64,000 bases of DNA from Candidatus Micrarchaeota archaeon. Lineage in GTDB: Archaea; Micrarchaeota; Micrarchaeia; Anstonellales; Bilamarchaeaceae. The notes under the pieces are model-generated. The model did no database searches and was not told the origin of the DNA. It saw only the letters and a list, made by a program, of their open reading frames with translations. Numbering within the stretch: position 1 is the stretch's first letter; each line of letters begins with the position of its first letter. Of the stretch, positions 11,640 through 39,424 are shown in pieces. The DNA lies in the NCBI GenBank assembly GCA_043827025.1, contig JBDRPL010000006.1, positions 1 through 64,000 on the forward strand, given 5' to 3'. The translations under genes were made by a program, and so were the position numbers.

Positions 11640-11822
11640 CGGGCCCGATGTGATTTTAACTTCGCGCTTGCTCGTTAAAAAGTCGCAAACAAGTTCGCGA
11701 TGATTTGAACACATGACCTTCACCTTTCTTCGACCTCAAAAATTGTTTTTGGGTCTAAAAGCCTTTTTTCTAAAAAGGCTTTTTAGGAGAGTGTCGCTCT
11801 ATCCAAGCTGAGCTACGGGCCC
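11640..11822 (-). tRNA. tRNA-Arg(CCT) with two introns (37/38: 11783-11726, 58 nt; about 59/60: 11703-11654, 50 nt)
   Basis: Acceptor GGGCCCG/CGGGCCC, D-arm GCTC/GAGC, CT-CCT-A loop, T-arm ATGTG-TTCAAAT-CACAT after intron removal; relaxed BHB motifs. Confidence 0.88.
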
Positions 11823-11912
11823 ATTGTACATACTGAACCCGAGATCGAATAACTTCCGATCTTTTTGATGAAACTTTTTAGGCATCCCGAAAAAGTTTCT
11901 GCTACGGGCCCA
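11812..11912. repeat. 12-bp direct repeat (gctacgggccca) of the tRNA 5' end enclosing two hairpins
   Basis: Copies at 11812-11823 and 11901-11912; IR GAAACTTTTT/AAAAAGTTTC (11870-11899) and GATCGAA/TCCGATC between them. Confidence 0.85.
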
Positions 11913-11975
11913 CATACATATGTGTTAAAAACTCTTCATGGAATGTTTTATAAAAGATGTTTTTTTGGTGAAATC

Positions 11976-12731
11976 ATGGTTCCTGAGCTTGCAGAGCTTG
12001 TAAAGTCGTCGATCGAGCAGACTCTCGAGGATAAAATCGCAGTTGCATTCTCCGGTGGGTTGGACAGTGGCATTATTGCTCATGTTGCAAAGAAGTATGC
12101 ACAAGTCTCTTTATTCACTGCAGGTGTTGAAACTTCCCAGGATATTGCCTATGCTAAAAAGGCAGCAGAAGAGATGAAACTTCCACTCCACAAGCTAATT
12201 TTTGGTGAACCTGAGATATTGGATCTTTATGTAAAGTGCTATGAAATCGTTCCAGGGGATCTTCTCAAAACAGAGCTATTGGTACCAGCCTATAAAATCG
12301 CAGAATCCTGCAAGCACGGAAATGATGTGCTTTTGTTCGGAAGCGGTGCTGAAGAACTATTTGTTGGCTATGAAAGATATTATACTTACAAGGAAGAAGG
12401 CAAGGATTTGGACGCAATACTCAAGGAAGAATTCAGTTCGCTTCAGAAAAGGGAAATCACATGGATAACTAAGGTGTGTAGGAAGTTCGGGGTTGAAGCA
12501 AGATTCCCGTTCTATAACCGAAAACTATTCGAATTTGTTTCAACAATTCCTCTTGAGATGAGAATGACTGAAAGGGAATTGAAGAAAGGCCTTTTGAGGG
12601 ATGCAGCCAAATTCTTAGGTTTGCCAAAGATAATGCTTGAAAGAAAGAAGAAAGCAATGCAATATGGTTCTGGGATACATAATCTTTTGCTGAAGCATTC
12701 ACATGAACTGGTGGGAAGCAGACCTCAATAA
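11976..12731 (+). CDS. Asparagine synthase C-terminal-domain protein (no glutaminase domain)
   Basis: AFSGGLDS, GSGAEELFVGY, RKKKAMQYGSG; start after a GGTGA SD. Confidence 0.85.
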   Translation: MVPELAELVKSSIEQTLEDKIAVAFSGGLDSGIIAHVAKKYAQVSLFTAGVETSQDIAYAKKAAEEMKLPLHKLIFGEPEILDLYVKCYEIVPGDLLKTELLVPAYKIAESCKHGNDVLLFGSGAEELFVGYERYYTYKEEGKDLDAILKEEFSSLQKREITWITKVCRKFGVEARFPFYNRKLFEFVSTIPLEMRMTERELKKGLLRDAAKFLGLPKIMLERKKKAMQYGSGIHNLLLKHSHELVGSRPQ

Positions 12732-12746
12732 AAAACCCTAATGGAT

Positions 12747-14210
12747 TTAACTCAAAATCAGGTCTGCGATCCTTTCTGCACTGAACCTTTCCAGGTCCCC
12801 GTATCCTTGCCCGGTGCCAAGGTAGATTATGGGAACGCCGGTTATCTTTGAGATGGAAAGCACTGAGCCTCCCTTGGCATCACAATCCAATTTGGTGAGC
12901 ACGACCCCGTCAATGCCGATATTCTCCTTGAAGACAGACACCTGTTCTATTATTGCATTTCCTGCAATACTCTCGCCAACATAAAGCTTCAAATCCGGCT
13001 TTATCACACGTTCCATTTTCTTTAGTTCATTAATGAGATTAAGGTTGGTGTCCTGCCTTCCGGCAGTATCTATCAATACAACATCAATCTGATGCGCCTT
13101 TGAATAATTTACAGCATCATATGCAACTGCTGTAGGGTCAGCACCATAATCCCTTTTGATTATGTGCACCCCGAGCCTTTCAGCATGGACAGACATCTGT
13201 TCTATTGCAGCTGCCCTGAAGGTGTCTGCTGCTGCAAACACTACTTTGTAATTGTTATCAAGAAGCATCCTCGCTATTTTACCTATGGTTGTTGTCTTGC
13301 CAGCACCATTTGTCCCAAGGACCATTATCTTCACTGGTTTCTCAGCAGTCTTGACAAACTCAAGGATATCTACTCCTTCCTTATCAAGAGAAATTGTACT
13401 AATGATAGTGTCTTTGATAACTTTCTTGACAAAATCATTGATCTCGTTTTTCTTGACCTTTTCACCAACCAGCCTTTTGCCTAAATCTTCTTTCATGGAT
13501 TCTGCAACTTCAATTGCAACATCACTTTCAAGTAAATCCAATTCAAGTTCATCCAGCAATTCCTTCACATCTCCTTCAGAAATATCAATAGTTCCTGTGA
13601 ATACGCTTTTCACTTGTTTGAGTATCCCTACTTTAAGCAGAGATTCCTCTTTTTCATGCTTTTTAGGCTCTTCTTTTACAATTAGTTTAGGGGCCTCTTC
13701 GATCTCTTCAGGTATTTTCCCAATTTTTTCTTTCACAGGTTCTGGTTTTCTTGTTTCAGGCTCTTTCTTGCCAGCTATTATATTCTTGAATGATTCGAAA
13801 AGCCCTGATTTCTTAGGCTCCTCTTTTACAATTGGTTTTGGAGTTTGTTCTATATTTTCTTTTTTCTTGACAGTTTTTGAGAATTCATCAGCGCTTATGG
13901 CCTTATCAAAATCAAATTTCAGTTTTTTCGCAGGAGCTTCTTCTGTTTCTTCCTTGATTTTCTCAGCTTTGGCAGGCTTCTCTTGTTTCGCAATTTTTTC
14001 CGCCTTATGGACTTTTTTTTCAATTTTTTCGTGCTTGGATTTTTTAGTTTCCCCTGGACGTTCAACAATTAGCTCCTTTTTAAGTTCTTTTGATGGCTTA
14101 GGCTCTTCGTCAATTTCTTCAGGTTCAACTTTTTCTACGGGCTTCTCTTCCTCTTTCTTAGTCAGCTTGTCTATGAAACCAGTCAATTTTTTCTTCAGAA
14201 GCCCGAACAA
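12747..14210 (-). CDS. ftsY: SRP receptor FtsY with a long charged N-terminal region
   Basis: GTNGAGKTTT, DTFRAAA, DTAGR and TKLDCDAKGG motifs. Confidence 0.96.
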   Translation of the reverse strand: MFGLLKKKLTGFIDKLTKKEEEKPVEKVEPEEIDEEPKPSKELKKELIVERPGETKKSKHEKIEKKVHKAEKIAKQEKPAKAEKIKEETEEAPAKKLKFDFDKAISADEFSKTVKKKENIEQTPKPIVKEEPKKSGLFESFKNIIAGKKEPETRKPEPVKEKIGKIPEEIEEAPKLIVKEEPKKHEKEESLLKVGILKQVKSVFTGTIDISEGDVKELLDELELDLLESDVAIEVAESMKEDLGKRLVGEKVKKNEINDFVKKVIKDTIISTISLDKEGVDILEFVKTAEKPVKIMVLGTNGAGKTTTIGKIARMLLDNNYKVVFAAADTFRAAAIEQMSVHAERLGVHIIKRDYGADPTAVAYDAVNYSKAHQIDVVLIDTAGRQDTNLNLINELKKMERVIKPDLKLYVGESIAGNAIIEQVSVFKENIGIDGVVLTKLDCDAKGGSVLSISKITGVPIIYLGTGQGYGDLERFSAERIADLILS

Positions 14211-14230
14211 TGCAGAACACCCTGGGCTGT

Positions 14231-14668
14231 TTATATGTAGTCTTCGCCTAGGTTTTCTTCGACCTGTTTGTTGATCTGTGCAGCAGTTTTCAATTCTCTC
14301 AGCCTTTCTGTGGTTGTTATAAGCTGGTGTGAAATTTCTCTGTATTTTTTGGCAAGCTCTTCAACAGCCTTTTTTGTTGCCTCTATCCTTCTCCTTAATT
14401 CACGTGAGGCCATCTCAGCATCCATTTCTGTCATATATCCTGCTCCGATCGGTATGAGTATCTTTGTATTATACACATTGGCTTTTATGTAGGCTCCGCC
14501 GCCTATTGGCACAAGCGAATCCTCTACCTCCAGCCTTTTTGCAGTGTTTTCTGCATTTATGAGGTCTAGGTTGGTGAGGCTGACCCTGTCAACTTCCTTT
14601 TGTATGAGCCTGAGCTGTTCTTCGTAGACTCTTCTTTCATACATCAGTGCATTTGGCTCGTTTTTCAT
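14231..14668 (-). CDS. pfdA: Prefoldin alpha subunit
   Basis: LVPIGGGAYI...IPIGAGY hairpins between coiled coils; conserved operon position. Confidence 0.9.
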   Translation of the reverse strand: MKNEPNALMYERRVYEEQLRLIQKEVDRVSLTNLDLINAENTAKRLEVEDSLVPIGGGAYIKANVYNTKILIPIGAGYMTEMDAEMASRELRRRIEATKKAVEELAKKYREISHQLITTTERLRELKTAAQINKQVEENLGEDYI

Positions 14669-14844
14669 TATGCCACCTTCTGCACTTTTCCTATAATGAC
14701 TTCTCTTCTCGAAAGCCTATTGGTGGATCCGAAGAGCGCATAGGTTTTGTCTCTTGCATCCTTTTCGCTCTTTGCCTCGATTTCTTTTTCGAACACTCTT
14801 TTTTGATCCTTAAATTTCAATTGTCCTGAAACATTGAATTTCAT
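14668..14844 (-). CDS. rpl18a: 50S ribosomal protein L18a/eL20 (LX)
   Basis: F.KEIEA.SEKDARDK.YALFGS..RLSRR; operon position. Confidence 0.88.
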   Translation of the reverse strand: MKFNVSGQLKFKDQKRVFEKEIEAKSEKDARDKTYALFGSTNRLSRREVIIGKVQKVA

Positions 14845-14875
14845 ATATTCACCTTTGTTTATCATGATTATTAGA

Positions 14876-15535
14876 TTATAAAAATCCAAGCGATTCCTCG
14901 ATTCTGCCGAGTTCGTGCGCAGTTGTCTCTTCGCCTGCAACATACCCCTTGTCATTTGCAGTTAGCCCTACTGACACGAAGCCTACACCCTTGTTCACTG
15001 TGCCCTTATTGCCATCTACGCCCAATACAGACCTTAGGAATTCCAATTCCTTGTCATTTGCAGCATAGTTGGTGAAGAATCCTTTGTTGTTGCAGATGCA
15101 ACAACTCCCTACGGTGGAATGTCCTGCTATTTTTGTTTCTATGAGTTCTACCCCGAGTACATCTTCGATCTTCTTCTTTTCTTCCATGTTGACAAATCCA
15201 TTTACAATTCCTTTTTTGTCATTCACTGCGATATTATTGCCAAGCGCATTGTTCTTTTCACTTGAAACATGCACATTCATGCCTAATTGTTTTATCATCT
15301 TTATTTCGGCCTGTGTTGTTATGTTTGGAAGCACTATGCCATTCGAGTTCATCAAGACATATGCTCCAATAAGGTTGGTGTTTCCTATTGTGGTGTGCAC
15401 AAGTTCTGTCTTTAGGCTTTCTTTTATCTTCTGCCCTAGTTTTTCCGGACAGTCTGCAGGAACCAGCGAAAGCTTGTTGTTCGAGCGTATGAATAATCCC
15501 AACCAGGGATTCCCGTAATATATGCCTGTTTTCAT
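14876..15535 (-). CDS. eif6: Translation initiation factor 6
   Basis: GNPWLG, NSNG, GNNIAVND, GTVNKG, TTAHELGRIE. Confidence 0.95.
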   Translation of the reverse strand: MKTGIYYGNPWLGLFIRSNNKLSLVPADCPEKLGQKIKESLKTELVHTTIGNTNLIGAYVLMNSNGIVLPNITTQAEIKMIKQLGMNVHVSSEKNNALGNNIAVNDKKGIVNGFVNMEEKKKIEDVLGVELIETKIAGHSTVGSCCICNNKGFFTNYAANDKELEFLRSVLGVDGNKGTVNKGVGFVSVGLTANDKGYVAGEETTAHELGRIEESLGFL

Positions 15536-15933
15536 TTCTTTTCTTCCTTCTTTTCATTGCCTGTGCTTGTCGGACCTTTCTGCTCCTTTGCAGGCTTAGG
15601 CGGTTCCGTTGTTTTCTCCTCTTTCTTCTGCTCGTTTGCCCCTTCCTTTTTTTCCGCCTTTTTAGTTTCCTTTTCTATTTTTTCATCAGGAAGATAAACG
15701 CTTGCCACTCCATCTCTAACTATGACCCTTACCTTTATTTTTCTTGGAGGTTTTTCTATACCTCTGCACCATACTGAGCTGTTCAGGGCATTGCTGAGCT
15801 TTACATCGTCCGCCTTTGTGCTCTTTCCGATGAAATCGCGCAGTATTTTCACAGTCCTTTCAGTTCTCCTAGTCCTAGTGTACTCATAGGATTTTGTAAG
15901 ATTTACATTGATAACTTTTTCAACATCAGCCAT
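15532..15933 (-). CDS. rpl31e: 50S ribosomal protein L31e with a charged C-terminal tail
   Basis: LN..VW.RGIEKPPRKIKVR. Confidence 0.92.
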   Translation of the reverse strand: MADVEKVINVNLTKSYEYTRTRRTERTVKILRDFIGKSTKADDVKLSNALNSSVWCRGIEKPPRKIKVRVIVRDGVASVYLPDEKIEKETKKAEKKEGANEQKKEEKTTEPPKPAKEQKGPTSTGNEKKEEKK

Positions 15934-15942
15934 TCGAATCAC

Positions 15943-16095
15943 CTAATCCTTGATTTTATCCCTTCTCCAGTTCCTTCTGCTGTTGTTTGCCTGGACTTTT
16001 CTTTTTGTCCTTATTGTGACGAATATCGGAAGCCTTCGATTCTGCTTCTTTGCCTTTGCAAGGCGCCCTTTCTTTTCTGAATCCTTTTTACTCAT
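15943..16095 (-). CDS. rpl39e: 50S ribosomal protein L39e
   Basis: RLAKAKKQNRRLP...RRNWRR. Confidence 0.92.
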   Translation of the reverse strand: MSKKDSEKKGRLAKAKKQNRRLPIFVTIRTKRKVQANNSRRNWRRDKIKD

Positions 16096-16121
16096 AAAAT
16101 TCCCTCGTGAATATTCTATTT

Positions 16122-16412
16122 TCATTTCCTGTTGAATGTTATAGTTGGCTGCCTTTCTTTTTCAGAAAGGAGCGTCTTGAGGATCTGCTTCAATTCCTCG
16201 TCATTGATTTGTCTTTCTATTCTTTTATATATTGTGATTATGTTCTTCGCAGCCCCGAAATACAGGTCTTTGTTTGCGACCTTTACATTCGTTATCCGGC
16301 TATAAGCATCTTCGGTGAGGGCTGCCCTGAGGAGGCCATTTATTTTTTCTTCGACTTTTTTAGCCTCTTCGCGTTCGTTGGAGCCTTTCTGCTCTTCATT
16401 CTGTTCAGGCAT
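16122..16412 (-). CDS. PDCD5-like double-stranded DNA-binding protein
   Basis: LR..LTEDAYSRI.NVK.AN; I.DEELKQIL; conserved position after rps19e. Confidence 0.8.
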   Translation of the reverse strand: MPEQNEEQKGSNEREEAKKVEEKINGLLRAALTEDAYSRITNVKVANKDLYFGAAKNIITIYKRIERQINDEELKQILKTLLSEKERQPTITFNRK

Positions 16413-16812
16413 TCATGATCTCCTTTGCTATCTGGTCCATGAGTTTTCTTCCCTTTGCGCTCAGTTCCCTTCCCCGTTTGGTCTTTACCAGGTATCCTGC
16501 AGTTTCAAGTCCCTGCAAAGCCTTTCTTATGGTTGAACCTCCAGTAGGTCTGTGGTGTTCTGGGGCGAGTCCGTTCTTCTTTCTTCCGCCATAGTGCCTT
16601 CTCATCCTTTGAGTTCCTATGTGGGTATTCACATATGCTTGTCTCATAAGGGATGCGCACCTAATCTGCCAAAAGTTGCTTTGTTCTGGCGGTCGTTCGC
16701 AGTGCGGACCAGTCTTCACAAGCCCTACGAATTCCGGCTTTTTTATTTCTGAGAGCTTTTCAGCGAGTTTGCTGATCAATTCGTTAGGATCTACGTCTAA
16801 TGCTGTTACCAT
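16405..16812 (-). CDS. rps19e: 30S ribosomal protein S19e
   Basis: VKTG...ERPP, YGGRK, IRKALQGLE.AG. Confidence 0.96.
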   Translation of the reverse strand: MVTALDVDPNELISKLAEKLSEIKKPEFVGLVKTGPHCERPPEQSNFWQIRCASLMRQAYVNTHIGTQRMRRHYGGRKKNGLAPEHHRPTGGSTIRKALQGLETAGYLVKTKRGRELSAKGRKLMDQIAKEIMNA

Positions 16813-16910
16813 TCATTATCACCATATTTTTTTCATTTCTATTCCTAATCTATGCTTAAAATAGGAGTATAAACTCTAAATACATCAATTTTAAAAGATA
16901 TTTATTCTTG

Positions 16911-16961
16911 ATCGGAATCCTCAGATTCCGATGCTGAAAAATTTTTTATTAAAATTTTTCA
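16911..16961. repeat. Two tandem perfect inverted repeats in the divergent rps19e/serA-like promoter region
   Basis: ATCGGAATC-ctca-GATTCCGAT and TGAAAAATTTT-ttatt-AAAATTTTTCA. Confidence 0.8.
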
Positions 16962-17050
16962 CTCCTTTTTTTGCCTTCATTGTTATTCTTTGTGTCGAAT
17001 CGGATATTTTTCCGTTCATTTTTTATTATTTTGCGTTAAACATCTATTTT

Positions 17051-17938
17051 ATGAAAATCGTTGTGTCAGATACTCTGCTGCCCGAAGTGCTTTCAAAGAT
17101 GGAAGGTATTGGGACAGTGGTTTACAAGCCAAATGACTTGAACAAGGAACTGGAAGATGCAGATGCTCTAGTGGTGCGTAGCGCTACAAAAGTCACCCGT
17201 GAACTTCTTTCCCATGCCAAAAAACTGAAAGTAGTTGCACGTGCAGGGGTTGGATTGGATAATGTGGATATCCAGGCCTGCCAGGAAAGAGCCATCAAAG
17301 TAGTCAACACACCTTCTTCTTCAACCAATGCGGTTGCAGAACTTGCCATGTGTTTTATGATTTGCCTTCTGAGAAAGGTCTGCAAGGCCAATTCCTTGCT
17401 GAAGGGGGGTAAATGGGAAAAGAACTCGCTAGTGGGAAATGAGATTGCAGGAAAAACCCTTGGAATCGTGGGTTTTGGAAGAATAGGCTTCTCAGTTGGC
17501 CAGAAAGCCCATGCCCTTGGCATGAAGATTCTTGCATACGACCCCCATCCAAAGAAGATTGATTGGGTTAGCTTCGTTGATCTTGACACTCTTTACAAGG
17601 AGTCGGATATCATTTCACTTCATACGATTCTTGTCCCTGAAACTAGAAACATGATAAATTCGTCTTCAATAGCGAAGATGAAGCAAGGAGTTTATCTGAT
17701 GAATATTGCAAGAGGCGAGCTGGTTGATGAAAATGCATTGTATGATGCATGCAAGTCAGGAAAGGTTGCTGGCGCTGCCCTTGACGTTTTTCCATCAGAG
17801 CCATATTCCGGAAAATTGCTTGGGCTGGACAATATTTGTGCAACTCCTCACATAGGTGCAAGCACAAACGAGGCTCAGAGTGGAATTGGAGAAGAGCTCA
17901 TAATCAAACTTAAAGAGGCCCTTTCCCCTTCAGGATAA
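17051..17938 (+). CDS. D-2-hydroxyacid dehydrogenase (SerA-like, no ACT domain)
   Basis: RAGVGLDNVD, GIVGFGRIG, NIARG, ALDVF..EP, TPHIGAST. Confidence 0.9.
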   Translation: MKIVVSDTLLPEVLSKMEGIGTVVYKPNDLNKELEDADALVVRSATKVTRELLSHAKKLKVVARAGVGLDNVDIQACQERAIKVVNTPSSSTNAVAELAMCFMICLLRKVCKANSLLKGGKWEKNSLVGNEIAGKTLGIVGFGRIGFSVGQKAHALGMKILAYDPHPKKIDWVSFVDLDTLYKESDIISLHTILVPETRNMINSSSIAKMKQGVYLMNIARGELVDENALYDACKSGKVAGAALDVFPSEPYSGKLLGLDNICATPHIGASTNEAQSGIGEELIIKLKEALSPSG

Positions 17939-18010
17939 TTCCACAGCTCTCCCCTTTCTTCTCCATAAGACTTTTATACCTTGTTTTTGTTATCTTTCAC
18001 AGGTGGATTT

Positions 18011-18226
18011 GTGGAAATTCCGGAAGTAAAAAATTTGGTAGTACCAAGGCCATTTTCAGTAGGGGATGAGCTGGAAGTGACTATTGAGACTCATGGAAAG
18101 CAAGGGGATGGCATAGCCAAGAAAGATGGATTTGTCCTGTTCGTAAAAAATTCCAAGAAAGGAGATGTTTGCAGGATCAAGGTCATTGATGTTAAATTAA
18201 CATATGCTATTGCAGAGAAATTGTAA
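18011..18226 (+). CDS. Stand-alone TRAM-domain RNA-binding protein
   Basis: V.VGDELEVTIE..GKQGDGIAK.DGFVLFV. Confidence 0.88.
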   Translation: MEIPEVKNLVVPRPFSVGDELEVTIETHGKQGDGIAKKDGFVLFVKNSKKGDVCRIKVIDVKLTYAIAEKL

Positions 18227-18229
18227 TTT

Positions 18230-19450
18230 TTAATCATTATTTCTTTTCGCAATATTTAGGAATAATACTATCAATAGGATTCCGATCATTCCGAATTCGA
18301 TGTATGTTATCTTTGTCTTTTCTTCTTCATAACCAATGCCTTTCCTCATATTTTGGCCATTCACTGCTCCTGTTTCAGATGTGTTTCCATTATAACTCAG
18401 CATCCTGCTTCTTATGATTTCGCTGTGGGTTAGGATATTTCCGAATTCGTCCATAATCTCGACTTCAAGCAGGTTATCTCCGATTCCTGGATATGTGGAA
18501 TTTATTTCATATGCGTAGCCGAATGTCTTGCTTCCTCTGAGCAGCCCTTTTGGGATCGTGACATTTTCATGGTTTTCCTTTGCTCCATTAGTTTGGTTCA
18601 TAGTTTCAAGGGAGATTATTCTCTGCATTCCAAGAGAATCACTTTCTATGTCGAATAGGTGGAATTTCCATTCTTTGATTGTTTCATTGTTTAGTTTGAC
18701 TTGGGACGAATATATTTCCCTGTTCGTAAAAAATATGCTGTCAAACCTGTTGTTCCTGAACCACTGCTCCCTAAGTACAGGGGCCACAAGGAAGTGCTCT
18801 GTAGATTCTCCTTCCACCTGGTATGTGGAATTTATGGCAACATCGCGAGTCATGCTGATTTGATCATCAGGAGTTGGCTGTAGCCCGCAGCCAACCACAC
18901 CCTCTCCAAATGACTGTGGTTCCCACACCTCTCTTTTTCTGTCATATATGAAAGCGAACTGTACATTTATGCTGATTTGTATGGTGTCTTTTTCAGATGC
19001 TGCAAGTTCATTTGTGTTGAATGGTATTGTGAAATAAAATTCAGGGTTTTCGATTGTCTTTGTTATGTTCTTAAATACGAACTTTGCGATTGTTTGCACA
19101 TTATAATCTGCAAGTTCAAGGTTCGTCTTATCCACCTTCCCAAAGCAATAATATCCATCTTTAGAAGGTGTTTCGTCATGGTATTCTTCATCGTATCCTG
19201 AAGCAAAAGTCCAAAGGACATCCGGAACTTGCGAATAACTTATTCTGGAGTCTATGGATGGATCTATTGCAAGCATTGTTGCATTTGCAAAATATACTGG
19301 CCCTTCGGAATTGTTTTGCATCGCCGTATATTTGGCTGATGCTCCCACTAGCACATTCAGGTTATTCAATTCTACCTCATTTAGGGGGGGTATTTCATAG
19401 GTTGAAAAAATCAAGGTAATTGCCAATAGCATTGCAAGGGCACATTTCAC
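18230..19450 (-). CDS. Secreted/membrane-anchored hypothetical protein
   Basis: Signal peptide, many NxS/T sequons, C-terminal TM helix. Confidence 0.6.
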   Translation of the reverse strand: MKCALAMLLAITLIFSTYEIPPLNEVELNNLNVLVGASAKYTAMQNNSEGPVYFANATMLAIDPSIDSRISYSQVPDVLWTFASGYDEEYHDETPSKDGYYCFGKVDKTNLELADYNVQTIAKFVFKNITKTIENPEFYFTIPFNTNELAASEKDTIQISINVQFAFIYDRKREVWEPQSFGEGVVGCGLQPTPDDQISMTRDVAINSTYQVEGESTEHFLVAPVLREQWFRNNRFDSIFFTNREIYSSQVKLNNETIKEWKFHLFDIESDSLGMQRIISLETMNQTNGAKENHENVTIPKGLLRGSKTFGYAYEINSTYPGIGDNLLEVEIMDEFGNILTHSEIIRSRMLSYNGNTSETGAVNGQNMRKGIGYEEEKTKITYIEFGMIGILLIVLFLNIAKRNND

Positions 19451-22670: not shown

Positions 22671-22674
22671 AGGC

Positions 22675-29538: not shown

Positions 29539-29600
29539 ATTAACACTAATATATAATCATAACCACAATGTTTTTAAAGACTTTCGTGCTGAGGTTAAGT

Positions 29601-30974: not shown

Positions 30975-30981
30975 ATTCATC

Positions 30982-31923: not shown

Positions 31924-32996
31924 TCTAGAAACTCATCCCATATCTTAGTTACAATCAGTTTTTTGCATTCTGCCTTGCATCCAAGCAGTGATGAGAAGTT
32001 CGGTTTCGTTTTATTCCCGTCGCCAGAGATCAATTCTTTTATGTAGGTTCCAGCCTCTGCAGTAATATAAATATCGAACATATTTCGATTCTGATTTTCA
32101 ACCTTCAAATCAATTATTTTTCTTTTTCGAATCTTATCTGCTCTTCTATGGGCAACCCTTGTCGGAGTTCTTTGGCCAATCACAGTTCCAACAAGCTCAA
32201 TTATCTTCTTTTCATCCTCTTCTGTAAATTCGCGGTCAAGTTCTACGGTTGCAAGATACTGCTTGTTGAAATGCGAATTGGAAACTAATTCAACACATCC
32301 ACGGTCAACGAATCGCAGGTCGGAAATCTCCACCCCATTCACAATTTCTTTCCTTATTCTTCCAAGATCGAGTTTGTGCATCTTAGGACCTTTCATCTCC
32401 AATACGAATGCCCTTCCTGCAATATTGGTGACATCGACATCTTCACGGCCAGATGCATGCATATAATATTCACCACAATTCGAATGCTTCTTGAACACTT
32501 CACCGACTATCTCTTCTATAGAAACATAATTCTTCCCAGTATCACTGCAATCATTGCATCCTTTTCCATTGCATCTCTTGCAGAACCACCTGCTTTGGGA
32601 GATGCCAGGAATCAGTTTCCTGTATCTTCCGAAAACGAACAAAGGCTCTATTTCCCTAGATGTTTCCATCTTCTTGAAGTCAAAAATATATTTGTTAATC
32701 GCATTGATTGAATAGTCAGCGCCAGTCTCTTTTATTATATGCGATATTATCTTCCTGTTTAGATAATTTTTCATGCTTTCTGAAAGATGCCTGTCCCATA
32801 CTTTCTCTTCGTTGATGAGCCATTTCTTTGGAATGTAGGTTGAAATTGAAAATAAGTCTCCTTTACCAAGTTTTATATCTGCCTTTCGTACAAACTCTTC
32901 GAATTTGTCTAGCGCATTTCCACAGATGCAGCAGTCTCCACTCTCAAACCTGTTTCCATTTGCAGAATTGCATGTTTTGCACAATCTCATCTTCAA
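31920..32996 (-). CDS. pus10: tRNA pseudouridine(54/55) synthase Pus10
   Basis: GRYRKL..GISQ, HASGREDVD, QRTPTRVAHRRAD, GTYIKELISGD. Confidence 0.95.
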   Translation of the reverse strand: MKMRLCKTCNSANGNRFESGDCCICGNALDKFEEFVRKADIKLGKGDLFSISTYIPKKWLINEEKVWDRHLSESMKNYLNRKIISHIIKETGADYSINAINKYIFDFKKMETSREIEPLFVFGRYRKLIPGISQSRWFCKRCNGKGCNDCSDTGKNYVSIEEIVGEVFKKHSNCGEYYMHASGREDVDVTNIAGRAFVLEMKGPKMHKLDLGRIRKEIVNGVEISDLRFVDRGCVELVSNSHFNKQYLATVELDREFTEEDEKKIIELVGTVIGQRTPTRVAHRRADKIRKRKIIDLKVENQNRNMFDIYITAEAGTYIKELISGDGNKTKPNFSSLLGCKAECKKLIVTKIWDEFLD

Positions 32997-33005
32997 CCAT
33001 CAAAA

Positions 33006-33350
33006 TTATAATCCAATATCCTTACGAGGCTCTGAAGGAAGGTCATTCTTGATTCTATATCCTTCGAGAATAAGCGAAGCTCTTTTCACCTTTGGTTCCC
33101 TTGCACCTAATTTTTTATTTCTCATTTTTTGTAAATATATCCCGAAATCAGCAAGCGTCTGCGATCCGTTTTCCACAAGTTGCCGCATGATGTCCACGAC
33201 AAGCCCTTTCCCTTCAACATCATTTCCCCAAACAGTGAGTGCAAGTGAAACCTGGTTTATGAAATGTGTTTTATCAGTTTCGCTCATGCGTTTCCATATC
33301 TCTGCGATTCTTGTTTTTACCTCAGGATCAACATTTTCGAAAATATCCAT
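33006..33350 (-). CDS. Hypothetical helical protein
   Basis: 114-aa ORF in an operon with pus10. Confidence 0.65.
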   Translation of the reverse strand: MDIFENVDPEVKTRIAEIWKRMSETDKTHFINQVSLALTVWGNDVEGKGLVVDIMRQLVENGSQTLADFGIYLQKMRNKKLGAREPKVKRASLILEGYRIKNDLPSEPRKDIGL

Positions 33351-33665
33351 TTACACCACCCATTTTACTTTCCCTTGTTCAAGTGCATCCACCAGTTTCG
33401 CAACATCTTTGATAACTTCCTGTGGGATCTCCAGCTTCTTCCCTTCAATTTCTACAGCAACAGGGACAGCGCCCATGAGATTTTTCTTAGGTTGTTGTTG
33501 AAGAGCTATCTTTTCATAATCTCTAAGTTGTTCATCAAGTGTTTGTTTCGGGTTTCTGGCACCGCCTTTGGTTGCTACTGCTTCAGTTATGAGGTCAGCT
33601 ATTTCTCTGAGGATGTTCTTTTCAGTTTTCTTCTTTTCTTCCAGTTTCTGCTGAGGCGCCACCAT
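33351..33665 (-). CDS. Hypothetical protein
   Basis: 104-aa ORF abutting the next gene; upstream TTTTAAG TATA. Confidence 0.6.
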   Translation of the reverse strand: MVAPQQKLEEKKKTEKNILREIADLITEAVATKGGARNPKQTLDEQLRDYEKIALQQQPKKNLMGAVPVAVEIEGKKLEIPQEVIKDVAKLVDALEQGKVKWVV

Positions 33666-33732
33666 AAAACTTCACATTAGTCTATTGCTTGAAAATCTTA
33701 AAAGGGTATGCAATGGTGCAGCGATAAATATT

Positions 33733-36108
33733 TCAGAAAAACGACTCAAGCCCCTTCTGCTTTCCACCGACTTTCAGATCTGTCTCGTCAAATCCCAATT
33801 CCTTCAATATCTTCATAACTGCAGGAAGCAATTGGTTGTTTATATAATAATCCACATCGTAGTCTTTTGCAAACTCTAATGGTTCTGCCTTTTCAGATAT
33901 CGTCTTACCTTTCTTAGTTACGACGTATCTTATTATGCTGCCCTTGGTTATGTCAACACCACGTTCAATTGCTTTCAAAGCTGCTGAAATCTCAGGGCTT
34001 TTTATCTCGTATTTAGACGGGGGTTTGCTGATCTGGGTGCTGATTGCAAGTTCCTCAAGATTTACCTTGCCTTCCTTCAGTCGTTTGATCGTATTTTGCA
34101 CGATCTCAACTGCCTTTTCCTTGCTTCCGTCTTTCAATATAGCTTCAAGCACTTTCCTTTGTGTGTTGCGTGCTATACCTGACCAATCCCTTCTTACAAG
34201 TTCAAATCCACGTATCTTTATCCTTCCATCCTCACTTATCAAAGCATATTTCTTCTTTGCCCCGACATCTTTTCCAGCCACTTTCTTTGTGACAAAAACT
34301 CCTCGCGGATAGAATGCTTCTAACTCCAATTCCATTCTTTCAGGAAGCTTTTTGTTCACCTTTTCCATGAATTCAAGGACTTCGTTCTTGTGTTTGTAAA
34401 TCAAAAACACAGAATCCGTGTCGCTATAAAGGACTTCCATCCCTTTTTTCCCAGCTTCTGCTATTGTATTCTGTATGTGCTCTCTTCCCCATGCAGTTGT
34501 GCTTGCACCACACTTCCTCGAATACCATCTTGCGCGCGGGTAGACGCTGAATCCATAGAAGCTATTTGCAAGTATTTTCAAGGAGAATTGTCTTGCGTTC
34601 AATCTTTTGTATTCTTCAGAATCCTTACTAAGCGATTTCAGCTGTTTCTTTATTTTGCTCCTTGCCTCAATGACATCTTCAAGCACCATTGGGATTATTC
34701 CTTTTGGTTTTTTCATGAACCTGGTGCCGTCTGGGGCAACATGCACATCATTTGTTTCAGAATCAGCAACAGTCTCGGGACTTATATTATAGGATGTTAT
34801 TATGGATGGGTACAATCCCCTGAAGTCAAGCACTGCGATGTTTTCATATATCCCTGGCTTTGGTAGTTTTACATATGCTCCTTGTATTGGGTTGCCCATT
34901 CTTTCCTGGATTTCAGATCCTCTGGGTTTCGGAGGAATCACAAACTCATGCTTTGCAGCATTGAACATCAATAGCTGTTCTACTAACTGGCCGCTGGTAG
35001 ATATGCTAACTTCGAAAAGAGGCATCTTTGTAATAATGCTGAGCTCTTTTAATATTGGCAGGAATTCTTTTCCAAGCACGTCTGTAGCATCAGCATCCAT
35101 TAGGGAATAATCAGCCAGTTCATCTATTTCGTTGCTGTCCCATATTTCCCAGATATTGAGTCTCTGGACCATCTTCTTTCCTTTTCCAGTTATTGATGCG
35201 TACACTGCTTCAAGAGTGTATTGATTTGTTTTTATCAGGCCTATGAATCCGAAGAACCTTGCTGGTGGATACAAGTCGATATGTATCCTTCCATTCAGCT
35301 TCACACCATTTATCATGCCCTTGCTTATGCTTTTTATCTTTCCTGGCCACCTTCCGAATTGGAGATTCGTTCTTAGAATTTCTGATCTTTTTTCCAGGTA
35401 CGGAAAATCGAAATTTGTTGAATTGTAGCCAAGCAGGACATCCGGATCCTCTTCTTTTAGCACTTTTCCGAATTCTTCAAGTGCTTCCTTTTCATTCTTT
35501 TTTGTTTTCACGAATTTGCGATCTGATCTCTTGTAAGTGGCAACGCCCCTTGTCTTTCCATGCCAACTTATCATTATTACAGGATCTATCTCTTCTCTAG
35601 GTGCGCCTTTTGGATTGTAGGTTTCTATGTCGAATGCAAGTGTTTTCAATGACATCTCTGTTTCTTCCTGGGATCTTATCTTCTTTATGAATTTCCCATC
35701 GACTTCGTATTTAATAATTGAGAAAGGCGTCAACCCAAAATCAAGCATGAATCTTTTTGCAAATGGGATTGCGTATTCATAACACGTGAATGGCATGGCT
35801 GCTTTCAATACTGGGACGAACGCAGGCTCCCTGCAATATATTTTCAGAAATTTCTTTTTTTCCATTCCAAGTATCTTGGTTACCTGCTCTACCCTTTCCA
35901 CTGATGCAACCTCTCCGGTTTTGAGTGTTGCCTTGACTTTCAGAACAAGGTCTTTCTTTTCAATTGGCGCATCTGCATAAAAATATGGCAAGTATTTGTA
36001 GTATCTTCTGCACGGCCTTTTCCCTTTCAAATAAAGACGTACGTATGTTTCATTGTCCTTGACAATATAATCTGCATCTATGAAATAAGCCTTCTTTAGC
36101 ATAACCAT
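33733..36108 (-). CDS. polB: Family B DNA polymerase
   Basis: FDIET, YNSTNFDFPYL, DFRGLYPSII, KILANSFYG, YSDTDS, KKKYA. Confidence 0.97.
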   Translation of the reverse strand: MVMLKKAYFIDADYIVKDNETYVRLYLKGKRPCRRYYKYLPYFYADAPIEKKDLVLKVKATLKTGEVASVERVEQVTKILGMEKKKFLKIYCREPAFVPVLKAAMPFTCYEYAIPFAKRFMLDFGLTPFSIIKYEVDGKFIKKIRSQEETEMSLKTLAFDIETYNPKGAPREEIDPVIMISWHGKTRGVATYKRSDRKFVKTKKNEKEALEEFGKVLKEEDPDVLLGYNSTNFDFPYLEKRSEILRTNLQFGRWPGKIKSISKGMINGVKLNGRIHIDLYPPARFFGFIGLIKTNQYTLEAVYASITGKGKKMVQRLNIWEIWDSNEIDELADYSLMDADATDVLGKEFLPILKELSIITKMPLFEVSISTSGQLVEQLLMFNAAKHEFVIPPKPRGSEIQERMGNPIQGAYVKLPKPGIYENIAVLDFRGLYPSIITSYNISPETVADSETNDVHVAPDGTRFMKKPKGIIPMVLEDVIEARSKIKKQLKSLSKDSEEYKRLNARQFSLKILANSFYGFSVYPRARWYSRKCGASTTAWGREHIQNTIAEAGKKGMEVLYSDTDSVFLIYKHKNEVLEFMEKVNKKLPERMELELEAFYPRGVFVTKKVAGKDVGAKKKYALISEDGRIKIRGFELVRRDWSGIARNTQRKVLEAILKDGSKEKAVEIVQNTIKRLKEGKVNLEELAISTQISKPPSKYEIKSPEISAALKAIERGVDITKGSIIRYVVTKKGKTISEKAEPLEFAKDYDVDYYINNQLLPAVMKILKELGFDETDLKVGGKQKGLESFF

Positions 36109-36172
36109 ATATCACAGGCTGTTATTTTAAAGAATACGAAAAAGAAGAATTATAAAAGAAAAAAATTTATAT

Positions 36173-36904
36173 TTATCTCTTCAAAGCGACTTCCTTGTCT
36201 GTCAATTCAGTAAGGACGTCATCGTGGATGAATCTCCTTCCACCAACCTTTACGTGTGGGATTCTTCCTCTATCGAGCCTTCTTTCGAATGCGTTTCTCT
36301 TTATTCTGATTCCTTTTTTATGCATCTCTTTTACAGCTTCGCTTACAGAATAATAATTCTGGCTGATATGTGTCAATGCCTCGACTGCGTTTCTTGGAAT
36401 CAATCTTCGCGTTCCGAACTTTACAGAAGGTACGCTTCCTTTTTCTATTCTTCCTATAAATGCCCTGAAGTTTATCTTACCATTCGTCTTTTTGTATTCT
36501 TGGTAAGCTTCCCTAACCGTGTAAAAGTCCTTCTTCGTATTTAATATGTCGTCGAGAACTGATCTCGGTATGAATCTTTTCCTACCTACCTTTACGAATG
36601 GTATTGTGCCACGCTCTATCCTTCCGCCGAATGCCCTGAATGAAATGTAAAGTCCATTTCCTTTCAGATAATCATATGCGCTTCTCACGGAATAGATGCT
36701 GTGCCTTGATTCAAGATCGTCTTCATTCACTCTCTGTTTGTAGAGATTTTGTGCTGCTTTGAAGACTGTGGCAACTGATCCGGAAAGTGATTTCTCATCT
36801 CTTTCCCTGATCTTTTTTATATTTTCCACATTCAGCATCTTGTAGTCTTCAACTACCCTATCGTTCGTATCTGTTTCAATTATTATTCTTTTTCCTCTTG
36901 GCAT
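36173..36904 (-). CDS. DNA-binding protein with three tandem excisionase/BldC-like (HTH_17-type) units
   Basis: Three repeats of Y(S/T)V.EA...I...AF..R(I/L)E(R/K)G.(I/V)P.VK.G.RR.I. Confidence 0.8.
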   Translation of the reverse strand: MPRGKRIIIETDTNDRVVEDYKMLNVENIKKIRERDEKSLSGSVATVFKAAQNLYKQRVNEDDLESRHSIYSVRSAYDYLKGNGLYISFRAFGGRIERGTIPFVKVGRKRFIPRSVLDDILNTKKDFYTVREAYQEYKKTNGKINFRAFIGRIEKGSVPSVKFGTRRLIPRNAVEALTHISQNYYSVSEAVKEMHKKGIRIKRNAFERRLDRGRIPHVKVGGRRFIHDDVLTELTDKEVALKR

Positions 36905-36988
36905 GTTCACACCTTCATTTTGTTGTTAAGTATGGTAATACATTATTCCATAGGGTTTATAAATACTACCATCTTTCACTTCGTTTTA

Positions 36989-38242
36989 TCACTCTTTCCT
37001 GAACCATAAACGGTACGCCCCATATACGAAAACGATTAATAAAATCACTCCACCTGCAACATATTCTATCGGGAGTCCGCTTTTTTGAGGAGGTTTGTCC
37101 CCAACCGCCGTTTCGTTTTTAGTCTGGTTGTTGTCCACTGCTACTGGCGGGTTTCCAGGTATGCTTAGCCTGGCTTCAAGACTTTGCTTGTTTCCTTCTT
37201 TGTCGCTGACATCTATGACAATGGATACAATGCTTCCCTCAGTCTTCGGGATCTCTGCCTTGAATTGGTCTTTTGTAACAGGGTAAATCACCGCTTTTTT
37301 CCAATTTCCTGATCCATCTATTTCATACTTCAAGCTTATACTTTCAGTTACCACCCCGCTGGCATATCCACCAGCATCCTTTACACTTATCAAAACTTCC
37401 GCCACCTTCTCCTTAATCTGTGTTTTCAATAAGATTTCAGGCGGAGTCTTATCAAAAATGACTTCGTATTCTTTATTCAAAGAAAGATCCACTTCTATTG
37501 TTTTTTCACTTCCTCCGTATGTTACCAAGAGAGTTTGTTGGGCAGACATAATGTCTTTGAAGTTTGCCTCACCATTCTCGTCTGTTTGGTACCTCTTTCC
37601 CAAGAACTCTATTTCTGCCTGGACAGGTTTGCCATATTCATCAATTGTCCTGATTTTCATAGGATAGAAGTCGGCTCTTAGATTGACTGTTGAATCATCT
37701 TCTACAAGTATTTGTTTCTGTATCTTTTCACCAGAAACTGTCATAAAAACTATATGGTTTCCTGGCGCAAGGTCAAAAGTTACCCACCCAGTTTCCCCAC
37801 TGCTCCTTTCAATTCCATCAACAATTATCTTTGCATTTTTTATTGCAGCTCCATTTTGGTCTGTTAAAACCATGAGCGTCTTGTAGGTATTGAACCTCAA
37901 GTCTGTCCTTCCTTGTCCCACACCTATTGTTTTTGTTATGTTTTGTCCTTGGTATATGCCATTCACACCTATATCGCAATCCGTTCTCATAATCTCCTGT
38001 TCAGTATTGTAAATCATAAATTCCACAAGCCCGCTTGAATTTGTTGGCAGTGTCTTGGTTTTAGCTGTTTTATCATAGGCAATACTATATGTCAGGTATA
38101 CCAAAGCGCCTTCAATGGGCCTTACCTTCGCATCAATTGCCCTGACTTGTATATCATCCACAAACCCAGGTTCACACACACCCATTGTTGCAAAACTCAG
38201 GGCGATGAAAATCATTAAATGGAGGATAAAACGTATTTTCAT
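36989..38242 (-). CDS. Surface protein with tandem transthyretin/Ig-like beta domains
   Basis: Signal peptide; repeated D..G.P(I/V)..A.(I/V)...T...G...F units; C-terminal TM. Confidence 0.65.
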   Translation of the reverse strand: MKIRFILHLMIFIALSFATMGVCEPGFVDDIQVRAIDAKVRPIEGALVYLTYSIAYDKTAKTKTLPTNSSGLVEFMIYNTEQEIMRTDCDIGVNGIYQGQNITKTIGVGQGRTDLRFNTYKTLMVLTDQNGAAIKNAKIIVDGIERSSGETGWVTFDLAPGNHIVFMTVSGEKIQKQILVEDDSTVNLRADFYPMKIRTIDEYGKPVQAEIEFLGKRYQTDENGEANFKDIMSAQQTLLVTYGGSEKTIEVDLSLNKEYEVIFDKTPPEILLKTQIKEKVAEVLISVKDAGGYASGVVTESISLKYEIDGSGNWKKAVIYPVTKDQFKAEIPKTEGSIVSIVIDVSDKEGNKQSLEARLSIPGNPPVAVDNNQTKNETAVGDKPPQKSGLPIEYVAGGVILLIVFVYGAYRLWFRKE

Positions 38243-38520
38243 GATAATACTTTAAACAGAAAGTATATAAATATGATGTTTTTCATCGTTAAATGTTAAA
38301 ATCTTGTTTGAAAATACTATTTTTGTGTATTTTTACTATTATTTGCACATTTTTAGGGTCCAAAATGTGGTTTTGTACATTTTAAATGCAATATTTTGAA
38401 TAATGTCACATGAATAGTCAAATCATGGTTCATGTTTAGGTGGTTGTGTGGACCATAGAATCAGATGCCCAACAGAACACATAAGTACATTTAAGAACAT
38501 TTCCATACACACTGTATTAT

Positions 38521-39213
38521 ATAAAACAATTACATGCTCAAAGTGCAAACGGAAGAAATCAAAGAACCATAGTTGCTCGCATTGCGACAACTACTACGGC
38601 AGCAATTATCGGATTACAGGGGTTGATGGGTTTGCCTTTAATTGAATCTGTTGCTATTGCACAACCGAGACCTGCTCCTACAAGGTTATATGATTATTCC
38701 ACAAATCCTGTTAGGGAACTTTCTGCCGAAGAAGCAGTGTTAACTCTTAATAGAGCAGTTAATGATCTGGATAGTGCTCGTAGCACACTTCGCCTTACTG
38801 GAACAAAAGCAATTCCCCTGTTAATTGAAAGATTGAGCAATCCAGATCTCTCGGTGAGAATTGAAGCTGCTGAATTGATTGGGAGTATCGCACGAGAAGA
38901 TGACAGTGTTGATCTTAATAATCCATATTTGTTTAAATGTTCTGTAGCAATTTCTCCGCTCACTGAAGCATTGAAGAGTTCTGATCCACGTTGGAAGTCA
39001 CAGGCTGCTGAAACTATCGGAGTTCTGGCAGTAGCGGCACGCGAGAAATACGGTGTTCTTGCCTTTGAAACAGTCGATCTGTTCTCTCTTGCAATACCTG
39101 ATTTAACTGAACTAAGCAAAGATACTGCGAATCCCATGGGGCAAGTAAATGCAGTCTGGGCGCTTCAGCGTATTGCTGCATGCATTCATGTTAATTCACA
39201 ACGTGAGAAATGA
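38521..39213 (+). CDS. HEAT/PBS-lyase-repeat protein, probably with an N-terminal signal (start uncertain; ATA proposed)
   Basis: AIPLLIERL...VRIEAAELIG, AISPLTEAL...AAETIG, AIPDLTEL...AVWAL; the frame is open upstream to 38485. Confidence 0.7.
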   Translation: MKQLHAQSANGRNQRTIVARIATTTTAAIIGLQGLMGLPLIESVAIAQPRPAPTRLYDYSTNPVRELSAEEAVLTLNRAVNDLDSARSTLRLTGTKAIPLLIERLSNPDLSVRIEAAELIGSIAREDDSVDLNNPYLFKCSVAISPLTEALKSSDPRWKSQAAETIGVLAVAAREKYGVLAFETVDLFSLAIPDLTELSKDTANPMGQVNAVWALQRIAACIHVNSQREK

Positions 39214-39241
39214 TATTTTTTACTTTTTTATAAATAAAAAA

Positions 39242-39424
39242 CGAGCTCGGTAGGATTTGTTCCATGGTAAAAGCCGCGTGGCTTTTGACCAATCCCTTTA
39301 CTTTTGCCATTAGAAATCCTTGGTCCAAAAGTAATGGGCTTGAACCCACAACCTACAGGTTGCTCCAGCAATTTGGAGAAGGCTTCCGAAGCCTATCGCT
39401 CTATCCAAGTTGAGCTACGAGCCC
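39242..39424 (-). tRNA. tRNA-Arg(TCG) with two introns (37/38: 39385-39361, 25 nt; 58/59: 39339-39257, 83 nt)
   Basis: Acceptor GGGCTCG/CGAGCTC, anticodon stem ATAGG/CCTGT, T-stem GTGGG/CCTAC; BHB helices CTTC/GGAG and GTTC/GAAC; TTTATAA TATA upstream. Confidence 0.9.

Follow-up and report, generated by a model that had tools for sequence, protein, structure and literature searches.

A short A/T-rich triplex-type repeat at the tRNA genes and tRNA introns of a Micrarchaeota archaeon

The tRNA genes of this archaeon, both in the window (the whole 64,000-nt stretch that was analysed) and elsewhere in its genome, are populated by a family of short A/T repeats with fixed polarity and three-way covariation, whose sites are filled or empty from one relative to the next. 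On balance, we favor the view that these palindromes are a non-autonomous DNA mini-repeat, a single strand of which could form a hairpin with an added third strand, and that they are inserted by nick-initiated copying. Some would survive inside tRNA genes by being spliced out. A literature search returned no paper on this A/T triplex-type repeat.

Design and distribution of the A/T module

The module is 30–45 nt long and consists, in that order, of a pyrimidine arm, a purine arm and a purine tail. An earlier note on this DNA had proposed a shared palindrome-plus-tail design; the family is real, but the tail is the mirror image of the purine arm, a feature that the note had missed. A strict census of the genome gave 19 matches, 17 of which were in tRNA loci (8.2 kb, 0.6% of the genome DNA), and the 17 best genome-wide matches to a covariance model trained on other genomes were all in tRNA loci as well. 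The strict census found nothing in the reversed genome, and dinucleotide shuffles of the tRNA loci gave 0.01 strict matches per shuffle. The proposed colonization of tRNA genes, and a similarity beyond that of shuffled hairpins, are thus borne out. A model scan of relatives, the check named beforehand, recovered further copies, with 0–74 per genome among 61 genomes of the host's family, 35 of which had no model match; since the genomes are related, these counts are not independent events.

The structure is strongly conserved, and 18 sequences were aligned in equal register. In the test for covariation, a C–G stem pair at positions 2–5 was accompanied by a tail G in 36 of 38 cases, compared to 7 of 586 for a T–A pair (the tail opposite the 586 stem A cells was A in 560, T in 14, C in 5 and G in 7). 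Shifted registers reduced the agreement to 1/38 and 0/38, and in a separate metagenome set the three-way covariation was 18/18 and 236/236. The linker, too, varies together with the base of the stem (36/54 vs 2/34). The order of the strands, with the third strand mirroring the purine arm after the pyrimidine and purine arms, is that of class II intrastrand triplexes, defined by Holder 2015 (PMC4666352) as Y-R-reverse Hoogsteen, and the modules keep to A(T).A-T and G.G-C triples. We therefore predict a class II purine-motif fold (A.A-T, G.G-C) of the BoxC kind. The A/T modules do not fit the G/C-rich TMECO consensus, so that they would work alike but belong to another sequence family.

Polarity is fixed: the foot of the hairpin lies at the junction and the tail points away from it, often in inverted doublets. 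In 51 tRNA-linked modules the foot is on an exon or a tRNA end; two were flagged, neither of which is a true exception. The transcribed strand carries the purine-motif version in 15 of the 17 matches in the host's own tRNA loci. Inverted doublets and arrays are present at several loci (L016, L059, L071, L135). The same module, in both orientations, occurs in Clostridia and Methanosarcinales, downstream of stop codons, within rRNA and C/D-like RNAs, and in bacteria that lack BHB splicing.

Modules in introns and at tRNA ends

Two tRNA genes of the window, both on the minus strand, illustrate these insertions. The tRNA-Arg(CCT) gene (11640–11822), recognized from its sequence, has exons at 11822–11784, 11725–11704 and 11653–11640, and its A27–A43 mismatch is common to its orthologues. 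Its 58-nt 37/38 intron (11726–11783) has two hairpins and a relaxed BHB as the predicted splice motif, with 3/4 central pairs and no h' helix. From the first intron base runs a module of the GCC subtype (11746–11783; strict census; 20.9 bits, E 0.085). The perfect 12-bp inverted repeat at the start of the intron (11783–11726), followed by the AGACCCAAAAA tail, is as the earlier note had written it. This tail is also predicted to pair in the second hairpin, which is a point against the triplex explanation. The second intron, in the T-loop (59/60; 50 nt; 11654–11703), has no module and is missing from the congener G123.

Upstream of this gene, a leader unit of ~89–90 nt (11823–11912, minus strand) is also missing from G123. 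Its first 12 nt (11912–11901) repeat the tRNA 5' end, a direct duplication that had been recognized previously, and are followed by a module of the GAAAC subtype (11862–11899; strict census; model score 44.5 bits) and a second hairpin. The module is identical at 40/40 nt to the start of a Gly(CCC) intron on contig C5. From this arrangement the unit is read as an insertion with target duplication. Neither a spliced intron nor a decoy strand for an early intron was adopted as an explanation of the leader, as the second copy is uninterrupted and there is no consistent BHB. A further suggestion, a mimic of the acceptor stem at the end of leaders, was dropped: 6–7/7 pairs could be formed, but shuffles often matched this, and only Arg-CCT stood out (P=0.02).

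In tRNA-Arg(TCG) (39242–39424), the 25-nt 37/38 intron (39361–39385) has a strict BHB and no module; a similar intron is present in several relatives, and it appears to be an old one. The 83-nt T-loop intron (58/59; 39257–39339), with a 4/4 central helix and two hairpins, is missing from G123, G072 and G075. It had been presented as another member of the family. The hairpin at 39269–39292 and the second stem do exist, but the inner T/A arms are absent, there is no strict match, and the covariance model finds nothing in this intron even with filters off and E<=10. At best, 39269–39292 is a degenerate or long-linker copy, and the same is possible for the stretch 39334–39282.

The four window introns have 3/4, 3/4, 4/4 and 4/4 central BHB pairs, and their predicted removal gives back a complete cloverleaf; intronless orthologues exist. 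The enzyme for such splicing would be encoded nearby, as claimed, at 9124–10302 (plus strand). This endA gene encodes a single three-unit chain of 392 aa, about 390 aa being expected for the epsilon2 type, with a full-length match to PDB 4fz2 (E 1e-131), while other EndA types match only in part. ARAGORN and Rfam found nothing in the window, and Rfam at E<=0.1 gave no match in 20 module loci; with such inserts, most tRNA genes escape the standard finders, which reported 0 in the window. Three RNA runs of the same study yielded only short pieces, from other organisms.

The same pattern extends beyond the window. Among 54 module-led introns with 26 called anticodons (the count includes about four mis-registered rows), 49 have a central BHB helix of at least 3/4, compared to 16% of control 4-mers, and in 48 the module begins within 0–2 nt of the 5' splice site. 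The host genome also has intron families that cross isotypes. Orthologous introns, whose invariance would have spoken against the earlier note, do vary: the sites differ or are empty in the congener, and across relatives their occupancy follows no pattern. At the foot, direct duplications were found for 5 of 237 A/T modules (0.4 when permuted; 2 tandem arrays) and for 10 of 59 modules of a G/C cousin described below (0.15 when permuted; 2 tandem arrays). They measure 11–40 nt at some copies and occur at non-RNA sites too. A 5' copy accompanies 10 of the 40 tRNAs of the genome, with 0.3 expected. Module-led 37/38 introns showed no target duplication (1.2 of 6 bases), nor did most stand-alone copies. 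MITEs, which in canonical form have terminal inverted repeats shared with a DDE transposon and a duplication of fixed length, offer a comparison: the doublets here give inverted ends, the duplications vary from 11 to 40 nt, and no parent element was found.

On the reading that we favor, a trans-acting, nick-initiated copying reaction would read the folded DNA and insert the module at RNA genes that are structured and highly transcribed, often duplicating the sequence at the foot. An insert might be kept only if it can be spliced, if the tRNA end is rebuilt, or if it lies outside the gene. Where the end of the intron pairs with the exon, the relaxed epsilon2 EndA could remove it; where the duplication rebuilds a whole tRNA end, the insert would become a leader or trailer, as in the 11823–11912 unit.

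Two points against this reading are that the purine-motif version is nearly always on the transcribed strand and that the tRNA targeting of the A/T module is so strict, which a process acting on RNA would explain more readily. Introns, excised or circular, could be joined to pre-tRNAs cut by EndA, then copied into DNA and fixed through recombination; the end duplications would then be one-sided conversions by tRNA copies and the three-strand pattern an RNA tertiary contact. The placement of the module at the 5' splice site, the cross-isotype families, the insertions in rRNA and C/D-like RNAs and the presence of one RT-like gene (in two frames) all agree with this route. We nevertheless consider it unlikely, given that copies occur in both orientations, follow stop codons and are present in bacteria that have no BHB splicing, that duplications are seen at non-RNA sites as well, and that an RT was found in only three of the ten richest relatives. 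Holder 2015 (PMC4666352) also reports that purine-motif triplexes cannot form in RNA.

The IS200 element and the search for a mover

Another candidate mover, proposed in the earlier note from proximity, is the Y1 transposase encoded at 11056–11487 (minus strand; 143 aa; PF01797). The protein scored 107.6 bits with NF033573 (cut-off 55) and only 21.3 with the RAYT model (cut-off 80), which identifies it, by profile match, as an IS200 TnpA and not a RAYT. Application of the guide rule predicts an element at 11023–11631 (minus strand), with target TTAT at 11635–11632, a right cut after TCAT at 11023, and hairpins at 11539–11523 (left) and 11053–11036 (right). Contigs of other organisms diverge from the sequence at 11021–11022, by this right end, and the element is missing from the syntenic site of G123. 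For C9, C33 and four of the five scripted cases the guide 4-mer predicts the boundary 4-mer at 3/3 positions, and for L393 at 2/3, with the register chosen from the right end. Both the window element and its own PATE family of nine copies obey the guide/cleavage rule described for IS200/IS605 elements and PATEs (PMC3201880, PMC3119063).

The predicted distance of the left cut from the hairpin is ~90 nt, since a folded G/C module stands between the two. This triplex-type module (11550–11631, minus strand), which the earlier note had left out, lies 8 nt behind the tRNA 3' end, has a 7-bp closing stem, and is ordered as purine arm, pyrimidine arm and mirrored pyrimidine tail. In several IS200 ends a G/C module separates the predicted cut from the left hairpin, and in relatives the G/C module also starts or flanks tRNA introns. 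The left end of another IS200, on C9, resembles the start of the Val(CAC) intron. A pattern search of 301 genomes for further IS-linked G/C ends yielded no new case, and at the genome level the G/C module does not track tnpA (11/36 vs 19/84, P=0.37). Judged from these sequences, the G/C cousin links TnpA to a triplex-type repeat distinct from the A/T family, and the IS200 TnpA is probably a vehicle for this cousin and not a general mover.

Movement of the A/T palindromes in trans by this TnpA, in the manner of PATEs or REPINs, seems improbable to us, although the inverted doublets resemble REPINs and the enzyme has both its PATE family and the G/C connection. The anticipated co-occurrence was not seen: for the A/T module with tnpA the genome counts were 6/19 vs 24/101 (P=0.56), and tnpA was found in 2 of the 10 richest genomes compared to 11 of 35 empty ones. 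Just 1 of 273 A/T modules lies near an IS200-type hairpin. The A/T junctions have no fixed tetranucleotide, their bases being variable, and the modules lack the traits of PATEs or IS200 derivatives (shared hairpin, tetranucleotide, no duplication). The 11–40-nt duplications also count against it, since IS605-type elements and PATEs are described as making none (PMC3119063).

The search for any other mover was negative within its scope. No protein recurs as a neighbor in about 275 module loci, and no cognate RAYT gene is flanked by A/T repeats. Genes for TnpA, RT and a four-helix-bundle protein (the last in three of the ten richest relatives) do not track module copy number. DUF559/Vsr-like and four-helix-bundle genes near tRNA-Val(CAC) were considered and set aside, neither being flanked by a module, and no GIY-YIG gene was found.

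A host-beneficial RNA element, acting as a 5'-end shield or processing aid for excised introns, trailers and mRNAs and spread among RNA genes by gene conversion, would need no dedicated mover. In its favor, the sense module would be the 5'-terminal structure after every cut (at the start of introns and trailers, and before some start codons), and its structural conservation is strong. We regard this as a poor prospect in view of the copy numbers of 0–74, the 35 of 61 family genomes with no model match, and the patternless filling of orthologous sites. Chance AT-rich hairpins in ordinary BHB introns, which the census, shuffles, reversed controls, other-genome model and covariation oppose and which are already refuted for 11746–11783 and 11862–11899, can be dismissed for the family; they do account for two sites once listed as weaker relatives, neither of which has a model match. 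The hairpin at 7153 has 7 bp, a type with 463 examples in the genome (z=-1.2); that at 16935 has 10 bp, lacks a mirrored tail and belongs to a type with 25 examples.

Significance and relation to known systems

An Asgard preprint of October 2026 (10.64898/2026.10.13.758758) describes the arrival of tRNA introns in archaea as an open question. The module would provide an arriving unit that can be defined by its sequence and polarity, has both filled and empty alleles, and is subject to a filter for survival, either splicing by EndA or duplication of an end. The origin of these introns would thereby become testable, the come-and-go of repeats between relatives offering a route. Intrastrand triplex repeats, known from E. 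coli with no clear role, would gain proof from natural covariation and a connection with mobility. More tentatively, the modules may be a minimal cross-domain mobile DNA, read via an intrastrand triple helix and inserted foot-first with variable duplication, a G/C member of which is carried by IS200 left ends; new BHB introns and duplicated tRNA ends in DPANN archaea could at present derive mainly from it.

Transposition of tRNA introns was reportedly proposed for Thermoproteales by Fujishima in 2010, from related introns in different isotypes and positions. What is shared in our case is the 30–45-nt module that opens the intron, its tail end being host-specific; leaders, trailers, rRNA, intergenic DNA and bacteria contain it as well. 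The multi-intron tRNAs described for Micrarchaeum ARMAN-2 (PMC3239211) have the same 37/38, D-loop and T-loop BHB introns, relaxed hBH motifs and EndA type, whereas repeat modules, present outside introns too, make up the introns here, which are 25–180 nt long.

The BoxC/PIT/TMECO repeats of bacteria, whose mechanism of spread is given as unknown (PMC4666352), share class II order, inverted pairs, and variable copy number and flanks between relatives. Our module differs in being A/T-rich, with 4–6 triples and a mixed stem base in its predicted structure, and in lying at archaeal tRNA splice sites and ends; the main text of that paper contains no mention of tRNA. REP/REPIN-RAYT systems (PMC3116915, PMC3337134) are alike in their short palindromes, inverted doublets, tandem arrays and patchy expansions, but the module has no RAYT beside it, has a third-strand tail, and is intragenic in tRNAs. 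IS200/IS605 elements and PATEs have ends that the A/T modules lack, and some modules have target duplications. Finally, att-type duplications (Sugahara et al. 2012, PMC3293823) likewise place a directly repeated tRNA end beside an insert, while the insert here is 30–110 nt and comes without an integrase, and equal duplications are also seen at sites other than tRNAs.

A triplex-type repeat family in tRNA loci

The genome under study, a 1.33-Mb assembly (92% complete) from which the window takes contig C6, positions 1-64000, has about 42 tRNA loci by signature scans, the majority of them interrupted. The endA gene at 9124-10302 is of the epsilon2 type, which is part of the basis for placement in the Micrarchaeota. 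Neither ARAGORN nor Rfam called a tRNA in the window; two Arg genes with two introns apiece, Arg(CCT) (11640-11822, minus strand) and Arg(TCG) (39242-39424, minus strand), are readable in its sequence. The palindrome that the earlier note described at the opening of the Arg(CCT) anticodon intron, and the palindrome with tail upstream, in the leader unit (11823-11912, minus strand), are exact. Both are copies of a 30-45 nt repeat, here the A/T module, in which a pyrimidine arm and a purine arm are followed by a tail that mirrors the purine arm, a feature absent from that note.

Of 19 genome matches to a strict search rule, which asked for a stem base closing in C-G, pyrimidine/purine arms, a linker whose last base is C and a mirrored tail, 17 lie within tRNA loci, which make up 8,152 of 1,325,056 bases; the other two are poor matches in coding DNA, and the remaining non-coding DNA had none. 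The reversed genome sequence yielded no match, and dinucleotide shuffles of the tRNA loci (n = 200) a mean of 0.01. The 17 best matches (E ≤ 0.13) to a covariance model trained on 18 modules, all from other genomes, likewise fall within tRNA loci; since 150 of 1,872 candidates were scored, weak copies elsewhere may have been missed. The hairpin reported at 39269-39292, within Arg(TCG), is genuine but has no inner arms and escaped both the strict census and the model, and the supposed weaker relatives at 7153 and 16935 are ordinary hairpins.

Tail and stem covary. Among 159 distinct modules, with tail positions 2-5 unconstrained, a stem C-G pair is matched by a tail G at the equal position in 36/38 cells, versus 7/586 for a stem T-A pair, these cells being non-independent events in which G nonetheless occurs at four different positions across several phyla. 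Shifting the register leaves 1/38 and 0/38 C-G matches. The counts in a second set of 129 metagenome modules, from a pattern in which tail positions 2-3 could be A or G, were 18/18 and 236/236, four unpaired-stem cells having been dropped. The junction-adjacent base also covaries with the linker, being T in 36/54 A-T cases versus 2/34 G-C or C-G cases, pattern-matched modules excluded. Judged by sequence, the design is that of the class II purine-motif intrastrand triplex of Holder et al. 2015 (PMC4666352), who describe such structures as unable to form in RNA; the module would then fold as a triplex, and its complementary strand as one of the pyrimidine motif. Intrastrand triplex repeats and BHB introns are already known kinds. 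Our literature search, with thin coverage of subscription papers and supplements outside its scope, found no paper describing triplex-type repeats in archaeal tRNA introns.

One narrow A/T-module pattern is present in 20/121 genomes of the order, with no match in the reversed control, and in at least 119 stretches of a species-genome collection, 80 of them titled; the taxa among the matches listed are Micrarchaeota, Woesearchaeota/Nanoarchaeota, Aenigmarchaeota, Iainarchaeota, Undinarchaeota, uncultured Methanosarcinales and Clostridia. Model matches per family genome, all counts being lower bounds, run from 0 (35 of 61 genomes) to at least 74. Genome G121 (84% complete; loci L470-L499) has 74, several in each tRNA gene, and a search there for a Y1 tnpA, an RT and the four-helix-bundle gene found none.

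Polarity, splicing and turnover

We sorted 254 modules relative to tRNAs by regex, which saw no tRNA at 199. Sense modules have their hairpin foot on a 5' exon in 42 cases and on a tRNA 3' end in six, and three antisense modules stand on a 3' exon; two more are false bacterial calls, and two flagged polarity exceptions are a 5' duplication (L033) and a 23S rRNA (L147). Many introns are made up of inverted module doublets.

Of 54 module-led 37/38 introns, taken from 55 loci picked by eye and bounded solely by reference to the anticodon stem and the T arm, 48 have a module that starts 0-2 nt from the splice site. The central helix of the BHB splice motif has at least three of four pairs in 49 of the 54 (36 perfect), versus 16% of interior 4-mers. 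The Arg(CCT) intron has three of four central pairs and no h' helix, a relaxed form that epsilon2 EndA cleaves according to PMC3239211. The anticodon stem of this gene (11784-11811, 11726-11720) has an A27-A43 (or G-A) mismatch, seen also in several relatives.

Further copies exist, and orthologous introns are variable, contrary to two of the outcomes that the earlier note would have taken as refutation. The congener G123 (74% complete) has a syntenic Arg(CCT) that is without the leader duplication, the T-loop intron and the downstream IS, and whose anticodon intron differs; its Arg(TCG) retains an old 25-nt intron type and has no T-loop intron. Introns of Ala, Val, Thr, Ser and Arg(GCG) have been exchanged, gained or lost between the two genomes.

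The IS200 transposase, the G/C module and duplications

The adjacent TnpA (11056-11487, minus strand, in an IS200 with predicted ends, 11023-11631) had been proposed as the mover of the family, and the A/T module does not track tnpA. No other tnpA lies within 0.3-1.5 kb of A/T modules in about 275 loci; 1/273 modules is near an IS200-type hairpin, by a regex composed after the data were seen; co-occurrence by genome is 6/19 versus 24/101, and tnpA is found in 2/10 module-richest versus 11/35 module-empty family genomes. The window enzyme, one of three in the genome, is an IS200 TnpA and not a RAYT. Its PATEs (IS200 derivatives of about 115 and 215 nt) have nine left ends with its hairpins, none within a tRNA, and seven follow TGAT, matching the guide prediction. 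Both hairpins are common to the window IS200 and the copies at C9:47776, C10:12790, C18:3393, C21:4875 and C26:8687, as well as the long forms at C30:48274 and the ends of contigs C14, C15, C18 and C28. One PATE is located between tRNA-Phe and tRNA-Met.

A G/C-rich cousin, the G/C module (11550-11631, minus strand), separates the IS hairpin from the tRNA 3' end; it has a purine arm, a pyrimidine arm and a mirrored tail. It is present in 52/176 genomes of the order; in the L418 copy, where the A is shifted the T is shifted too, in arm and tail alike. An IS200-type hairpin lies 3' of 5/29 copies versus 0/54 control windows. The IS608 pairing rule includes a fourth pair. In a test whose register was set from the IS right end, the four bases directly before the module are those predicted by the guide in 4/5 scripted cases, with four different guides; the rule also fits genome G100 (by eye) and the C9 and C33 ends, which carry another G/C module. 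The fit is 2/3 at L393 and at the site beside the window IS hairpin, and 2/9 PATE copies tolerate 2/3 too. The rule's other pairs follow PMC3201880. Because the guide predicts the bases just before it, the G/C module is predicted, and most likely, to lie within the IS200 left end.

Most G/C copies stand alone, without an IS target (TnAT at 5/48). One opens an Arg(TCT) intron (L416), others lie downstream of tRNA 3' ends (L399, L400, L417), and the genome's own Ser(GGA) intron ends with an antisense copy. A third module, G/C-rich and of hairpin-and-tail form (C9:19997-20033, C33:1-75, C25:57048-57083; L484, L230), occurs at another IS200 left end and also stands at the start of a T-loop intron and of Val(CAC) introns.

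A 5'-end copy of at least 7 nt, no more than 200 nt upstream, accompanies 10/40 of the genome's tRNA genes (0.3 expected; two Ser loci omitted), and 3'-end copies accompany 4/40; three tRNA leaders contain an A/T module. Direct repeats ending within 4 nt of the hairpin foot flank 10/59 G/C modules (permuted mean 0.15) and 5/237 A/T modules (0.4), tandem arrays accounting for two of each; outside arrays they are 12-40 nt long. Foot duplications also occur at non-tRNA sites, and one further case is at a stop codon in G121. No target duplication was seen at module-led introns. IS605-type elements make none, according to PMC3119063. The module may insert at the DNA level, with a survival filter acting on insertions; the Arg(CCT) leader would be an insertion at tRNA position 11/12 rescued through its target duplication.

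Other sites and repeats

In the 16S rRNA, an insert of about 45 nt (C24:22600-22632, minus strand) combines a degenerate module, a weak model match (E 2), with a clean BHB; 23S rRNA inserts of the module occur at L022 and L147. Apparent C/D box RNAs carry the module behind a D'-like box at L004, L125 and L390, and at L276, L281-L283, L294 and L317 the module sits immediately 5' of ribosome-binding sites in small-gene arrays of viral-looking metagenome contigs. In Woesearchaeota and Methanosarcinales, stop codons mark the start of a longer element made up of a pseudoknot-like head, the module and an end hairpin, and a similar head occurs in Clostridia (L038, L047, L048, L061, L065, L066, L075, L077, L083, L097, L123; L036, L058, L073, L101); an Rfam search gave no match.

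Further repeat families lie within introns and flanks of tRNA loci on C2, C9, C10, C12, C19, C30, C32 and C35, among them GAACTTCGTTC units and, in D-loop introns and leaders, TTGAAC/GTTCAA hairpins. An RT-like gene in two reading frames lies at C11:15985-18293, beside an ORF with what we take to be a DGR-target-like end. Heptamer repeats at the tRNA loci resemble those around a four-helix-bundle gene (C25:57527-57922).
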